From assembly GCA_038889075.1 (NCBI GenBank), contig JAWAHS010000001.1:344970-408969 (forward strand): DNA of 64,000 nt, in the 5' to 3' direction. The position numbers and the translations under genes are program-made. Under the pieces are notes generated by a model that was given only the letters and a program-made list of their open reading frames with translations, did not search any database and was not told where the DNA came from. This document shows positions 2,381 to 61,515 of the stretch, piece by piece (positions within the stretch are counted from its first letter, which is position 1; the number at the start of each line of letters is the position of its first letter). Source of the DNA: Ignisphaera sp. GTDB lineage: Archaea; Thermoproteota; Thermoprotei_A; Sulfolobales; Ignisphaeraceae.

Positions 2381-2896
2381 TCACTTAAGGATCTCGATAT
2401 CTATACTGCACTTAACTGGTAGTTTTGTAGAGGCTCTTCTTAGAGCTTCTTTCAGTATATCAATATGTTGTTTATAGCCTAGAACTTCTACAATTTCATC
2501 CCAAGGAGCGACAACGCAACCTACACCAACAGGTTTTCCAAAGGCTCTCCTCATACCCTCTTGCAGTCGGTCAGCACCTGCAAAAGCCATCATCTTATGT
2601 TCTCTCAAAACTTGATGAGGATACTTTCTTACAACTAGTACAAAGTTTTGTTCATTAATTTCGGTACTTAGGAACTTGTGAGCCATGATTCTGGCAGCCT
2701 CTAATGCATTATGTCGTATAATTCCTCCTTCAAGAGCCTTAAGCACAAGCCTTACCTCCGGATTGAGCTTCGTATTGCCCATAACAAACTTTGAAATCTT
2801 AGGTGGTGGTATACCATGTATATACTCCCGTCTCGTATATGGTGGTTTTTGCTGATGCGTATAGCATCTAGCTGGTTTTAGAGGCATCCTAATCAC
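2381..2896 (-). CDS. rpl10e: 50S ribosomal protein L10e (uL16)
   Basis: PARCY, LEAARI, LREHKMMAFAGADRLQEGMRRAFGKP. Confidence 0.97.
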   Translation of the reverse strand: MIRMPLKPARCYTHQQKPPYTRREYIHGIPPPKISKFVMGNTKLNPEVRLVLKALEGGIIRHNALEAARIMAHKFLSTEINEQNFVLVVRKYPHQVLREHKMMAFAGADRLQEGMRRAFGKPVGVGCVVAPWDEIVEVLGYKQHIDILKEALRRASTKLPVKCSIDIEILK

Positions 2897-2910
2897 CCTT
2901 TAGCTTTAGA

Positions 2911-3663
2911 TTAAGCTGTACTTTCCTCCTTTTTAATTTTACTGTAGATTCTCCTTATAAATGTTATTAAAAGACCTACTTCACTTCTCGATAGTAGTGT
3001 TCTTCTAAACAACCGTTTAAGTGATATGGTAAACAGCTCTTTTTGAAACTCATTGCTCGAAACTATTGTTGCAAGCTCATCAATATATCTATCCAATATA
3101 TGAAGCTGTTCTTCACTAGCTTTATCAATTTTATCCAGGACACTGGATTTTTTAAATGCTTTATAGAGTGCGTACAGGACTATTCCTATAGCATGGCTAA
3201 GATTTAGTATAGGATACTCTGGATTTGCAGCGATATGCACTAACAGATCGCACTTTGCAATCTCATCACGTGTCAGTCCAACACTCTCACGCCCAAATAC
3301 TATAGCTACGTCATCGTACCTAACAGCTATATTAACAAATTCGTCCAATTCTATTGCCCTCCTAAGAATATCTATACCTTCAATACTTACGACACCAGAT
3401 GTACACGCTGAAATGCTGACATTTTTTAGAGCATCATCTAATGTATTGTATACCTTAACCCTGCTACTATAAAGGTAATCGACACCTTTTGCAGCAAACC
3501 TCCTTACTTCTTCAGACCATGGATCTATTTGTGGATTTACAATAGCAAGTTCGTCAACATCAAAGTTTTTGCAAAGCCTTACAATAAAACCCATATTTAT
3601 CTCGCCTTCAATACCTATAACAACAACCTTTAACACAGTTAGCACCTCACTATGATAGAGCAT
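2911..3663 (-). CDS. trmJ: TrmJ-family SPOUT tRNA 2'-O-methyltransferase
   Basis: NMGFIVRLCKNF, VFGRESVGL, YPILNLSHA. Confidence 0.88.
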   Translation of the reverse strand: MLYHSEVLTVLKVVVIGIEGEINMGFIVRLCKNFDVDELAIVNPQIDPWSEEVRRFAAKGVDYLYSSRVKVYNTLDDALKNVSISACTSGVVSIEGIDILRRAIELDEFVNIAVRYDDVAIVFGRESVGLTRDEIAKCDLLVHIAANPEYPILNLSHAIGIVLYALYKAFKKSSVLDKIDKASEEQLHILDRYIDELATIVSSNEFQKELFTISLKRLFRRTLLSRSEVGLLITFIRRIYSKIKKEESTA

Positions 3664-4247
3664 ATAGCTTCGTAGAAAAATTCACTACATTCATAAATTT
3701 CAATATCGCTACAAACACTTAGTATAGTATCTAAAATTCTTGCTAGACTCTGAAGCGAGGAAAAAATAAATATAACTGTACATCGATTTCTCAAGCATAT
3801 GTGTACAGTATCGCTGAAGAATTCTTTCCAAACTTCAATACCTCCGTAACCACCGCTCCATGAAATTCCGATATCGTCGAATTCTTCAACAGGTATGTAG
3901 GGAGGATTAAAAAACACTATAGACGCAAATGATCCTCTAAAACACTGAGCCGAATAACATTGGATAACATCGATATACATATCGAGACCGTTCCTCTTTG
4001 CTGAACTCCAAGAAGTATAAGCTGCACAGGGTGATATGTCCGTTAGTATACCATATAGGTTTGCTCTTCTACTAGTAATAAGTAGATAGTTGCTAACATA
4101 ACCACTTCCACTACCAATTTCTACAAACACTATATCTCTATTCCTATGTTCAGTAAAGAGCTCTTTTACTGTTTTAGCTAGTATATAGCTATCCTCAGCA
4201 GGTTCGTATACATACTCATTCACTAATATCTTCATATTATCGTACAT
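3639..4247 (-). CDS. HemK2/PrmC-like release factor glutamine methyltransferase
   Basis: VYEPAEDS, EIGSGSG, FNPPY, WSGG; start placed at ATG 4247 overlapping the rsmA stop (TGATG). Confidence 0.85.
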   Translation of the reverse strand: MYDNMKILVNEYVYEPAEDSYILAKTVKELFTEHRNRDIVFVEIGSGSGYVSNYLLITSRRANLYGILTDISPCAAYTSWSSAKRNGLDMYIDVIQCYSAQCFRGSFASIVFFNPPYIPVEEFDDIGISWSGGYGGIEVWKEFFSDTVHICLRNRCTVIFIFSSLQSLARILDTILSVCSDIEIYECSEFFYEAICSIIVRC

Positions 4248-11187: not shown

Positions 11188-11387
11188 TATAGATACACTA
11201 TTATCTAGAAAAGACAGTTTATAGCTTAAAAATATAATGAAAAGAGTCTGGCATACCAAGGAAAAATGGCATTGCACAATAAGAATTGCAATACTCATAG
11301 AAAGAATACCTTCCATCCAAACACAAATGGAAAGTAGAATAAAAGCTTAATAGCAAGTGACAGTAGGAGAAATAAATACTAGAAAAT

Positions 11388-11461
11388 GGGCCCGTCGTCT
11401 AGTCTGGTAGGACGCCGCCCTTACGAGGCGGAGGTCCGGGGTTCAAATCCCCGCGGGCCCA
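11388..11461 (+). tRNA. tRNA-Val(TAC)
   Basis: GGGCCCG/CGGGCCC acceptor stem, CCGCC-CTTACGA-GGCGG anticodon arm, GTTCAAATC T-loop; no intron, no encoded CCA. Confidence 0.97.
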
Positions 11462-11617
11462 TCTGGGTTTAACTTCTATTGTCTATTCAACTATACTCTA
11501 CGGTGATTATCGTCCAAAACATTAATGAGATATGTAATTGAATACAGAAATTCTATGGTAAAGCAATGCTATAAAGAGACCATGTAATCGATTTTTCTGG
11601 CCAGTAGGATGGGGTTT

Positions 11618-11887
11618 GGGTTTCATGTTGGTTGATGTTGTTTGATCTCGACCCTTGGTTTCATTGTCCTCGGGGCACCTTTTCATCGGTGCCCACATCA
11701 TCGGTCTCCACCCCTTTGGGGAAACCCCTACCCACAGCTCACCCTCATCTAGCTCATTGCTGTGGGGAAACCCCACATCCTGGCTTTGAATACTCATCCA
11801 CTTGGGTCTTTACCATGCACCCACATCGTGGATGGGCTCAAACAGTAAAGCAACCACAATCAACCCTTATAAACCTATATGAAACCC
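11618..11887 (-). mobile_element. Putative 270-bp non-autonomous element / tnpB-end-derived structured RNA
   Basis: Bounded by inverted GGGTTTCAT...ATGAAACCC; GC-rich hairpins with GATGA/TGA k-turn-like motifs on the minus strand; internal TTTATAAG box. Confidence 0.55.
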
Positions 11888-12098
11888 GAAACAGTTGCGT
11901 AAGGCGTCCCAGACACTATTTTTAAATAACTTAGATTGATAGAAATGTGCCTATGTATATGCTATCATCACATAGTTCCTATTTTAAGTTCGGTACAAGC
12001 AGTATATGACTTGGAAGAACCTTCTATACAATACATAGGATACAACTTTCCTAATTTTGGCTACCTTAGGTTTTACGATTCAAACTATTAACCATCTA

Positions 12099-12629
12099 TT
12101 ATGCTGAAAGAAGATTTTGCCAGAAACTAGCATCAGTTATGCCACCAATTACTATGGCTATCGGTTCACCATGTTTAACTACTATTGTTTGTGGAACGCT
12201 ATAGGCATAGCTAGGTGGTAGACCATTGTTTTGCTCTATTTTGGCCAGATTTCTAAATAGATCAGCATTATTAGGATCGTCAATCCATAGAAATAAACAT
12301 TTATCTTTAAAATACTTTTCAAAAAATTCATGAAGGTTTCTACAAAAGGGACAAGTAGTTGCGCCAAATGCTATTAGATTAATAGATTCTCTTTGGTTAT
12401 CTTTTATAACTTTAGACACAATAGATGCTATATCATTCTTGGAAACTCTATAGGTGGATCCATCAACGTATACGGAGATGTACTGCTGATTTAAAGGCGA
12501 ACTAGATGGAGCGCTAGATGACGAATGGGTGTACACGTAGTATATAATTAGAATTGATAAAACCAACACTATTGGAATGGATACAGCCAACATATTCTTA
12601 TGCTTTGGTCTTCTCTTTGCCTTTGGCAA
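12099..12629 (-). CDS. Membrane-anchored thioredoxin/glutaredoxin-like protein
   Basis: Basic N-terminus, one TM helix, Ser-rich linker, CPFC motif, cis-Pro SVPQT. Confidence 0.8.
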   Translation of the reverse strand: MPKAKRRPKHKNMLAVSIPIVLVLSILIIYYVYTHSSSSAPSSSPLNQQYISVYVDGSTYRVSKNDIASIVSKVIKDNQRESINLIAFGATTCPFCRNLHEFFEKYFKDKCLFLWIDDPNNADLFRNLAKIEQNNGLPPSYAYSVPQTIVVKHGEPIAIVIGGITDASFWQNLLSA

Positions 12630-19091: not shown

Positions 19092-19733
19092 GTGTATATA
19101 ATGGTTGTAGTCATCTTAGTATATACCGTTGGCTCACCGGATATATATAGAATAAGGGTAGTTAGAGGTGTTGATCAAAGATTTGGAAGGCTAGATATAG
19201 TTGCGCGAATTATGGATGTATTGCTAGATGATGCATTTAAAGATGTTGATAAATATTTAATAGTATATATTGAGAGTATAAAGATGGCTGTACATATAGA
19301 TGTAGACGCTGTTGATAAAAGATTCTATAGAGAGGTGGAACTGTATAACATTCTGTTGCGATGCATAAACAGTAGCACAACATTCTGCTCTAAAATTGAG
19401 ATAGACTTTGAACTGCTTTTGGAAATGCTACAGGCAAGATATGAGATTGCAGTACTTAGTGAGGAGGGCAATATACTATTCCCGGATTGTATAGGAGTAG
19501 ATACTGTATATGTAGTCGGTACGGAAGAAGATCCTCCTAAAGATGTTGTAGCAAGATATAGGAAGATATCAATAGGACCGCTAAGTTATCAGGCGGACCA
19601 AGTTGTTAGTTACTTAGCATGGATCATTGCAAGAGGAAAGTCTAGACGGCCCGATCCCAGCTTAGGTGGGCTGCGGCCCCTCTCGGAAGCCACAGCCTCA
19701 CCTAACGTGGCTGGCTTAACTTCCGGGATCTGA
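19092..19733 (+). CDS. TrmY-like (DUF358) SPOUT methyltransferase
   Basis: GRLDIVAR, VLSEEG, YVVG, ISIGPLSYQADQVV knot motifs. Confidence 0.65.
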   Translation: MYIMVVVILVYTVGSPDIYRIRVVRGVDQRFGRLDIVARIMDVLLDDAFKDVDKYLIVYIESIKMAVHIDVDAVDKRFYREVELYNILLRCINSSTTFCSKIEIDFELLLEMLQARYEIAVLSEEGNILFPDCIGVDTVYVVGTEEDPPKDVVARYRKISIGPLSYQADQVVSYLAWIIARGKSRRPDPSLGGLRPLSEATASPNVAGLTSGI

Positions 19734-19774
19734 CGAGTCCGGGTGTTGCCCAGCCACTATGGCCGGGTCGGGCC
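19648..19774 (-). rRNA. rrf: 5S ribosomal RNA
   Basis: Minus strand GGCCCGACCCGGCCATAG...ACACCCGGACTCGTCAGATCCCGGAAGTTAAGCC...GATCGGGCC with pairing ends; CTTTTAA box about 26 nt upstream. Confidence 0.96.
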
Positions 19775-37420: not shown

Positions 37421-37505
37421 GCGGGGGTGCCCGAGCTAGGTCAAAGGGGTCGGGCTTAGGCCCCGATGGCATAGGCCTGCGTGGGTTCAAATCCCACCCC
37501 CCGCA
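37421..37505 (+). tRNA. tRNA-Leu(TAG)
   Basis: GCGGGGG/CCCCCGC acceptor, TCGGG-CTTAGGC-CCCGA arm, long variable arm, GTTCAAATC. Confidence 0.96.
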
Positions 37506-38009
37506 CTATCTTTCCGGCTCTTCATAGATCTAGATAGAGTTCATAACTATTTCTACAACTCTGTAGAATTACTTTGTCTTCTTTTGGTCTAAGATTATAC
37601 CATTTCCTATTTAGATAATAATTGTTCATCTTTATACCTATGTTTCCATAATTCAATACTATGTCAATACTTTGACGAACTGTGCAATTCTTTGCTGGTA
37701 GAAACTTCTCGGCGTCTGAGGAGCGTTTTTCATTTACAGAAAAAGAAGAAGTAGAGGTTGTTAAAAGGTATGTAGCAGAGGATTATGCGACCGTTTTGGC
37801 TATAAGGTTTATGCTTGGAACGTAATTTTGGAACTATATTGCAAGCCTCATGTAATTGACCTTGAATGGTGCCCACGGCATACGCGTAAGGGTGGCCTAG
37901 GAGCTACAGTAAACCCGTGGTGGAGAGTGTAACCTTTTAACGAGACCTACAATGACTTAGGACGGAAGTGGTTTGTAGTGTAACCGTTGTATACTAAGAA
38001 GCTGGTTAC

Positions 38010-61427: not shown

Positions 61428-61515
61428 GCCGGGGTGCCCGAGTGGTCTAAGGGGCCGGCCTTGAGAGCCGGTGGGGTACCTCCCCGCGCGGGTTCAAATC
61501 CCGCCCCCGGCGCCA
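61428..61515 (+). tRNA. tRNA-Ser(TGA), CCA encoded
   Basis: GCCGGGG/CCCCGGC acceptor, CCGGC-CTTGAGA-GCCGG arm, long variable arm, G discriminator then CCA. Confidence 0.96.

Follow-up and report, generated by a model that had tools for sequence, protein, structure and literature searches.

The window analysed here is a stretch of 64,000 nucleotides from Ignisphaera sp. (assembly GCA_038889075.1, contig JAWAHS010000001.1, positions 344,970 to 408,969 of the forward strand), and coordinates are window positions unless a contig or locus is named. A GC-rich island is located next to the tRNA-Val gene (11387-11463, plus strand). The GC content is 0.51-0.58 over positions 11600-11800, and approximately 0.3-0.4 on both sides. 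The island is almost certainly a gene-less mini-element that originated from an archaeal IS607 transposon and carries the omegaRNA region of TnpB, that is, the region specifying the guide RNA of this protein. The mini-element is separated from tRNA-Val by 147 bp. Its sense strand is the minus strand of the window, because the element runs from 11905 down to 11611, and it can be divided into the following parts:

11611..11904, minus strand: the whole mini-element, comprising the 292-bp insertion and a second copy of the 2-bp CC crossover
11903..11905, minus strand: GCC target motif, similar to a target-adjacent motif (TAM); the G (11905) belongs to the host, and the two-letter crossover is CC (11904-11903)
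11845..11902, minus strand: left end, with GGTT(T/G) cores every ~10-11 bp (element positions 20, 31, 40, and 51)
11887-11879, minus strand: left-end motif GGGTTTCAT, one of the phased GGTT(T/G)-core motifs
11866..11873, minus strand: TTTATAAG, an archaeal TATA-like box kept in most left-end copies
11793..11838, minus strand: hairpin CCCATCCAC...GTGGATGAG, which encloses a GGGT/ACCC stem and derives from the zinc-finger codons of tnpB
11611..11784, minus strand: core omegaRNA-scaffold region, made up of the tnpB 3' tail and the right end
11618..11651, minus strand: right-end sub-terminal region with ATCAAAC, ATCAACC, and ATGAAACCC, which are inverted relative to the left-end motifs
11591..11610, minus strand: predicted guide segment, the host flank AUCCUACUGGCCAGAAAAAU directly 3' of the scaffold

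An earlier note, made from the letters of the window, had interpreted the island as an internally deleted tnpB-element derivative with a promoter-bearing end and a guide scaffold. The motifs and hairpins that it listed are all present at the coordinates it gave. When read on the plus strand, GGGTTTCAT is located at 11618-11626 and ATGAAACCC at 11879-11887, whereas TTTATAAG occupies 11873-11866 of the minus strand. The hairpins CCCACAGC/GCTGTGGG and GGCACC/GGTGCC are both found in the island. The motif GGGGAAACCCC occurs twice (11718 and 11764), with a chance expectation of 0.01. The enrichment of CCCACATC, of which three copies are inside the element, is weak or marginal: the window contains four in total against ~1.0 expected, and four or more were present in 3 of 100 shuffles. 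The reading frame GFPHSNELDEGELWVGVSPKGWRPMMWAPMK, which the note had likened to TnpB tails, matches the tail of a genuine TnpB. The predicted fold of the element has an energy of -90 kcal/mol on the minus strand (z = -2.7) and a z of -3.2 on the plus strand. Since z is close to -3 on both strands, the folding energy is uninformative as a strand test.

Copies, limits, and the empty site

The island is a dispersed repeat. A query of 371 bases centred on it gave 15 matches in the source genome (G000, 1.95 Mb assembly), six of which are full-length: the window copy with 100% identity, and others with 91, 91, 80, 79, and 78%. The remaining matches are one internally deleted copy and fragments. Matches were found in 16 of the 41 genomes searched (the source genome included); of the 16 further genus members searched, 12 gave a match. 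All seven aligned copies from the source genome have sharp ends and unrelated flanks. The similarity begins abruptly at GCCTTACGCAACTG... and stops equally abruptly at ...CATGAAACCCAAACCCC, and the flanks are different at every copy. The internally deleted copy (contig C6:61777-62010, G000) is nested in a fragment of the scaffold region of another copy, and its upstream flank corresponds to C5:38418-38455 at 84% identity.

The limits of the window copy were verified by a natural empty site. DNA contigs from four hot-spring metagenome runs were compared over positions 11300-12300. A contig of 640 nt from run X8 (depth 16.2, 0-1 differences) joins 11610 straight to 11903, which skips 292 bp and leaves two letters (GG, plus strand) that fit either side. 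Contigs from runs X1 and X7 span the filled left junction (11876-12098 and 11878-12300). In X1 there is also a diverged strain (13 differences), which is likewise empty and contains CAGT where the others have TGGC. Because filled and empty contigs exist at the same locus, the 292-bp insertion is polymorphic among natural strains, and it is not accompanied by a target duplication. The crossover is the dinucleotide CC of the sense strand within ...GGGACG-CC-ATCCTACTGG..., and GGC (plus strand) is present in the empty-site contig. The orthologous tRNA-Val intergenic regions of genomes G009 and G012 lack the element, with flanking genes ~71-76% identical, which is too diverged to provide an exact empty site. 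Paralogous empty sites were not found in the source genome for any of eight loci.

The same junction recurs at other insertions. Among 61 distinct left-end junctions, collected from all loci and the source genome, CC is present in 54 and GCC in 50; the base preceding the G is A in 27, T in 13, C in 10, and G in 4. Each of the 40 aligned right ends has C as its last letter, and 39 have CC as the last two. The last five bases are ACCCC in 38, the exceptions being L010 and L024 with ACUCC and ACACC, respectively. The two ends of the mini-element, GCCTTACG... and ...AAACCCC, do not form an inverted pair, and terminal inverted repeats are absent. The inverted 9-mers by which the earlier note had bounded the island do exist, but are positioned 7 and 18 bp inside the true ends. 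They are sub-terminal motifs rather than terminal repeats, because the alignment of copies and the empty site place the limits at 11611 and 11904.

The IS607-family parent element

Both the left 47 bp and the right ~175 bp of the mini-element recur 1.7-3 kb apart, flanking two overlapping genes that encode a 200-aa protein (TnpA) and a 437-445-aa protein (TnpB). TnpA contains a Resolvase domain (PF00239) and an N-terminal HTH_17/MerR-type helix-turn-helix (HTH), and matches the NCBIfam equivalog transpos_IS607 with 223.6 bits (cut-off 110). TnpB contains the TnpB/Cas12f TNB domain (PF07282; 54-55 bits, cut-off 26.3), scores 72 bits against guided_TnpB, which is under the cut-off of 100, and ends in ...MWGFPHS..ELWVGVT.NGWRPM.WAPMK. 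The mini-element is related to this parent as follows:

element positions 1-47: left end of the parent, 96% match
element positions ~68-113: a portion of tnpB that encodes the zinc finger, codons TCPRCG..VKT.VGR
after the zinc-finger piece: ~67-95 nt of the parent, deleted from the mini-element
element positions 122-295: tnpB 3' tail and right end, 90.5% identical to the resident full-length element

The mapping onto the parent, together with the multiple copies and the covariation of the right-end core described below, bears out the core of the interpretation given in the earlier note. Copies, an empty-site contig, and a full-length tnpB parent, for which that note had suggested a search, were all found. 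The promoter-bearing end and the guide-scaffold region are kept in the element, and the variable flank occupies the position in which a guide would lie. In the parents, the TTTATAAG box is located ~40 nt 5' of the tnpA start codon. Of the 13 mini-element copies inspected, most have an interrupted or shortened tail open reading frame (ORF).

Genome G008 contains another kind of derivative, L028, in which the left end, followed by 19 nt from the start of tnpA, is joined to a point ~10 nt upstream of GGATGTGGGG. L028 arose independently of the window-type mini-element, and the same right-hand core of ~175-190 nt was therefore retained by separate deletions.

The only full-length cognate element in the source genome is located on contig C5, and its tnpB is an uninterrupted frame of 445 codons. 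This frame (L036:977-1015, contig C5) extends 36 nt beyond the right end into host DNA before reaching a stop, and the last 12 residues of the resident TnpB are therefore dependent on the insertion site. Homologous tnpB genes end in different frames. The tnpA of the resident element contains an insertion (G000 contig C5:39798-41094; locus L036 ~2500-3795), on the opposite strand of which is a 376-aa ORF with no Pfam hit and only a faint NCBIfam guided_TnpB match (E = 0.0057, 16 bits). This ORF may be a very diverged TnpB-like gene or belong to another mobile element.

The parent belongs to the IS607 family, as it combines a serine recombinase and a MerR HTH with a 2-bp exchange and sub-terminal motifs. 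IS607-family elements are described as having neither terminal inverted repeats nor target duplications, with GG at the termini and the target, and with short phased sub-terminal motifs that are bound by several TnpA dimers (PMC6188088). By analogy with the ends of IS1535 and IS607 in that description, the left-end GGTT(T/G) motifs are candidate TnpA-binding sites. The earlier note had considered a distinct element class on account of the inverted ends. No new class is needed, because the sub-terminal motifs of IS607 explain these ends and the parent encodes an IS607-family serine transposase. The note had also remarked on the missing target-site duplication; none is present at the empty site, but this is not a gap in the evidence, as IS607 elements are documented without target duplications. 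Two other classes were considered and rejected. The mini-element has neither the terminal inverted repeats nor the target-site duplication of a classical miniature inverted-repeat transposable element (MITE), and resembles one only in its miniature, non-autonomous nature. A palindrome-associated element (PATE) of the IS200/IS605 type does not fit a parent with a serine recombinase instead of a Y1 transposase.

The source genome contains a second family of gene-less mini-elements with a length of ~288 bp and at least six copies, all outside the window (C1:207399, C1:295042, C1:340608, C2:308033, C12:937, and C14:4627). Their left end, GCCTTGTGCAACTGTTT..., is related to that of the first family, the right end reads ...GAACCCC, and they contain GATGTGGGG. 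The right ~135 nt correspond to the end of a parent-like, tnpB-only element on C9 (~16.9-18.4 kb), the TnpB of which is 30% identical to that of the first family.

Predicted fold and covariation of the right-end RNA

A search of 301 genomes of the order provided relatives of the cognate TnpB in 66 (E <= 1e-40, the source genome counted), and seven more were taken from named metagenome-assembled genome (MAG) records of Desulfurococcaceae, Sulfolobales, and other hot-spring MAGs. Alignment A1 comprises 40 non-identical right-end cores; identical duplicates were dropped, and the partial copies L008, L016, and L026 were left out. The structure specified over A1 has 90.5% of its cells paired, compared with 26-49% when the partners are slid. 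Doubly changed cells number 76 in the alignment, compared with 29 +/- 4 in shuffles, and no shuffle out of 500 reached 76, although related sequences can exceed shuffles without having any structure. The main structural features of the window copy are:

11768..11774 with 11611..11617, minus strand: helix 1, proposed long-range (pseudoknot-like) pairing of GGGGUUU with AAACCCC, 93.9% of cells paired
11731..11766, minus strand: helix 2, stem CCCACAGC/GCUGUGGG with a variable loop, 98.1% paired and nearly invariant
11666..11706, minus strand: k-turn-like module with closing stem GACC/GGAC, box-C-like GAUGAUG, hairpin GGGCACC-GAUGAAAA-GGUGCCC, and box-D-like CGA

The AAACCCC strand of helix 1 (11611..11617) is both the 3' end of the scaffold and the terminus of the right end. 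Pair 19-188 is the only covarying pair of this helix (UA 23, UG 9, CG 5, other 3), and a competing local hairpin exists. An analogous contact, a pseudoknot between the 5' region and the bases that immediately precede the guide, has been described in the omegaRNA of ISDra2 (PMC10097598). The stem CCCACAGC/GCUGUGGG is uninformative because it is nearly invariant, and hairpin GUGGGG/CCCCAC is an alternative to it. The GGGG and CCCC runs allow three mutually exclusive pairings (columns 68-70/75-77, 74-77/83-86, and 83-86/184-187) that are indistinguishable.

The covariation is strong for the hairpin and closing stem of the k-turn-like module, and moderate for the right-end hairpin. In helix 5, the hairpin GGGCACC/GGUGCCC, pair 106-119 is AU in 15 sequences, CG in 12, and UA in 10. 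Pair 91-129 of helix 4, the 4-bp stem that closes the module, is AU in 13, CG in 12, GC in 3, and unpaired in 10; the window copy is unpaired at this position. Helix 6, the right-end hairpin, has GC/CG swaps at 151-176 and 153-174, and reaches up to 11 bp in homologues. The box-D-like CGA of the window copy is CUGA in most homologues. The consensus GNCC-RAU-GA...CUGA-GGNC with its internal GAUGAAA loop reads like a C/D-type k-turn combined with a k-loop.

G-U pairs are frequent on the sense strand only. A 1-nt indel (GATGAAAAGG versus GATG-AAAGG) shifts the frame between homologues, and the nucleotides downstream of it are still conserved. Together with the broken tail ORFs, these features indicate that the constraint acts on RNA or DNA, and not on protein.

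No Rfam family matched at its gathering threshold, and a search of 11400-12100 at E <= 10 returned only chance-level matches. The main text of an L7Ae RNA-immunoprecipitation sequencing paper (PMC5539422) does not mention transposase, transposon, IS200, OrfB, or insertion, and thus provides no support either way. Ordinary RNA genes elsewhere in the window are those for 5S rRNA (19657-19766, minus strand; Rfam 44.6 bits), tRNA-Leu (37421-37506), and tRNA-Ser (61428-61515).

The mini-element RNA as a possible guide for TnpB

Because the mini-element has kept only the ends, the promoter, and the guide scaffold, it probably borrows its transposase and nuclease from a full-length element elsewhere. 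We consider it reasonably probable, by analogy with known systems, that its RNA is a trans-acting guide for the resident TnpB. The TnpA serine recombinase, supplied in trans, would bind the phased sub-terminal motifs and move the element; the observation that speaks for such mobilization is the polymorphism of the insertion among natural strains. The left-end promoter, which drives tnpA-tnpB in the parent, would here directly drive the synthesis of an RNA of ~230 nt plus the flank, starting at approximately element position 63 and continuing through the scaffold into host DNA. The RNA may fold into the scaffold of the family, with the k-turn-like module, the right-end hairpin, and the 3' terminus paired with the 5' G-run. 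The TnpB encoded by the one full-length element of the source genome (contig C5) would load this RNA and use ~16-20 nt of the host flank as a guide. The guide would recognize the empty donor site, GCC followed by ATCCTACTGG..., while the filled site would be spared because the scaffold ends in CCCC. Repair of the break at the emptied site from a filled sister copy would result in the retention of the mini-element. Homing logic of this kind has been demonstrated with IS605 as well as with a bacterial IS607 element. A read-through transcript from the mini-element would enter tRNA-Val in antisense orientation 147 bp downstream, and there is no obvious terminator-like T-run between them.

The empty site presents GCC before the flank, whereas the filled site presents CCC. 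The 20-mer flank AUCCUACUGGCCAGAAAAAU, which adjoins GCC in the empty site, is unique in the source genome and has no second site there at up to three mismatches; one of its 16-mers matches elsewhere with two mismatches and without GCC upstream. The comparison of the flank with viruses advocated in the earlier note yielded no protospacer, as the 20 nt had no exact match in the viral contigs searched. In the IS607 element of C. botulinum, as described by Zedaveinyte et al., the TAM TGGG is the TnpA target with its GG core, the scaffold has UCGG at its end, and self is told apart from target at position -3 (PMC10690162). The same discrimination at -3 would fit GCC and CCC at the window locus.

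The active site of the presumed TnpB partner departs from the canonical one. The RuvC triad of ISDra2 TnpB is formed by D191, E278, and D361 (PMC10097598), and the similarity of the family profile to this protein is weak (E = 7e-12). In the cognate family, the RuvC-I Asp (AWDSNE) and the RuvC-II Glu (FEDLEKE) are invariant, and the canonical D-E-D triad is not present. An Asp neighbouring the D361-aligned position is found in 21 of 24 rows. Altae-Tran et al. 2023 have reported archaeal TnpB branches, associated with serine recombinases, whose catalytic sites are rearranged, as well as inactivated TnpBs with regulatory roles (PMC10691335).

Several observations weigh against a working guide RNA at this locus. 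The position aligned to D361, by both single-sequence and profile alignments, is occupied by Gln in 23 of 24 rows and His in one; the context in the TnpB proteins of loci L036-L084 (alignment A2) is DRQ, compared with DRD in ISDra2 TnpB. The nuclease activity of the cognate TnpB is therefore not to be assumed. The only cognate tnpA found in the source genome is split by the insertion described above, which is ~1.3 kb long, and as a consequence the mini-element copies may be immobile in this strain, leaving homing nothing to counteract. Genomes G004 and G011 of the genus contain mini-elements, but the TnpB query used had no match there at E <= 1e-40. Both the window copy and the parent have an A-A mismatch in the closing stem of the k-turn-like module and a degenerate right-end hairpin. 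Furthermore, much of the covariation may come from full-length parents and be uninformative about whether the window copy works, and the retention of the right end alone is no proof of an RNA role, because TnpA needs it as DNA. Given the split tnpA, the lack of a TnpB match in G004 and G011, and the Gln at the D361-aligned position, some copies, possibly including that in the window, may be relics.

The mini-elements might be pure DNA parasites or relics that are, or formerly were, moved by TnpA alone, with a functionless RNA and a tnpB 3' region that was kept for the recombinase or by chance positions of the deletion ends. Apart from the broken tnpA and the genomes in which mini-elements occur without a detectable cognate tnpB, this explanation would account for decayed copies such as C6 and L016, the latter of which lacks the 5' strand of the long-range pairing, and IS1535 TnpA is described as protecting up to ~75 bp of an end (PMC6188088). 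Against it, two independent deletion architectures keep ~175-190 nt up to GGAUGUGGGG, well past the motif zone of ~45 bp. The retained part is also the one with RNA-type covariation and G-U pairs, and the promoter is placed so as to transcribe it. We regard a pure DNA relic as possible, though doubtful.

The scaffold RNA could instead guide TnpB to bind DNA without cutting, or to cut it by means of a rearranged active site, in which case the mini-elements would be RNA-guided repressors or targeting devices and not homing guides. Gln at the RuvC-III Asp position next to an invariant RuvC-I Asp and RuvC-II Glu agrees with this, as do the published archaeal branches with rearranged sites and the inactivated regulatory TnpBs (PMC10691335). 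This explanation is nevertheless very unlikely: the proteins are encoded within intact-looking mobile IS607 elements together with TnpA, an association that is mostly missing from the dead TnpBs in the literature, two residues of the catalytic triad are retained, and the window guide is without a second target in the genome. It is hardly credible that the island is a host gene for a structured RNA (multi-hairpin H/ACA, C/D-box sRNA, or another L7Ae-bound RNA) or for a small protein (91-codon minus-strand ORF, 11522-11797), since, despite the open frame, the motifs like box C, box D, and k-loop, and a weak sR34 C/D match (16 bits, gathering score 40, E = 3), no curated Rfam family matches at its threshold (complementarity to rRNA or tRNA targets was not searched), the ORF is not conserved among copies, and the sequence recurs at dispersed sites with the ends of a transposon, is homologous to the tnpB 3' end, and is missing from the same locus in other strains.

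An extension of the guide RNA model would have the scaffold, with a genuine k-turn and k-loop, recruit host L7Ae into a three-part ribonucleoprotein of TnpB, omegaRNA, and L7Ae. One resident Asp-to-Gln TnpB would then be served by promoter-equipped mini-elements of two families (at least 12 copies in the 1.95 Mb genome), each guarding its own insertion site. We consider this arrangement unlikely.

The closest published counterparts of the mini-element are the PATE-like gene-less IS605 elements, which according to Meers et al. 2023 often encode omegaRNAs for distinct TnpBs in trans (PMC10055086, preprint). As described there, PATE-like elements share with the mini-element the miniature, protein-less organization, the retention of both ends and the guide scaffold, and the need for TnpA and TnpB in trans. 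However, they are bacterial IS605 elements with hairpin ends that depend on a Y1 transposase and single-stranded DNA, whereas the mini-element is a serine-recombinase IS607 derivative from a hyperthermophilic archaeon, which would move as double-stranded DNA by a 2-bp exchange, and whose scaffold is immediately preceded by the promoter inherited from the parent.

The parent resembles CboIStron (PMC10690162) and IS607, IS1535, and ISC1926 (PMC6188088) in having a serine recombinase with an N-terminal MerR-type HTH. According to the same descriptions, IS607-family elements have, like the mini-element, no terminal inverted repeats or target duplication, a shared GG (CC on the tnpB strand), and phased motifs. 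The scaffold of CboIStron similarly ends at the right end, and its TAM-like target differs from the scaffold end at position -3 (GCC/CCC here, TGGG/UCGG in CboIStron). In contrast to the CboIStron described there, the mini-element contains no genes and no group I intron, and its TnpB clade and scaffold are archaeal, the latter without an Rfam hit. The cognate TnpB also differs from the IS607-family elements used for comparison, as these are described, in the Gln at the canonical third catalytic position.

The omegaRNA, or reRNA, of ISDra2, as reported in PMC8612924 and PMC10097598, extends from within the 3' end of tnpB to the right end and takes its guide from the flank, as the mini-element RNA would, and the nucleotides just 5' of the guide pair near the 5' end of the scaffold, as in the fold proposed here. 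The two RNAs differ in having no detectable sequence similarity, in length (~175-230 nt as opposed to 116 nt), and in the k-turn-like motifs of the former. SisTnpB1 (PMC10640517) and TnpB7 (PMC11043419) of Sulfolobus islandicus are likewise archaeal, thermophilic, and supplied with guide RNAs derived from right ends, and are reported to be active. They belong to IS605-type elements with AT-rich TAMs (TTTAA/TTTAT), and these papers, in the parts consulted, describe no gene-less derivative. No gene-less omegaRNA element of IS607 or archaeal origin was found in the literature searched, which does not prove that none has been reported.

Gene-less omegaRNA elements are thus already known for IS605, and what is added here is the serine-recombinase chemistry, the fusion of the promoter to the scaffold, and a natural filled/empty pair that gives a predicted TAM. 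The filled/empty pair fixes the boundaries of the element and its GCC target. For annotation, GC-rich islands of this kind in AT-rich archaeal genomes are to be considered transposon relics rather than new host RNAs. The family offers a testable thermophilic TnpB system with a predicted TAM, a scaffold of ~175-230 nt, and at least six natural guides. Guide RNAs without a nuclease gene would thus arise not only from bacterial IS605 elements but also from IS607 elements in hyperthermophilic archaea.

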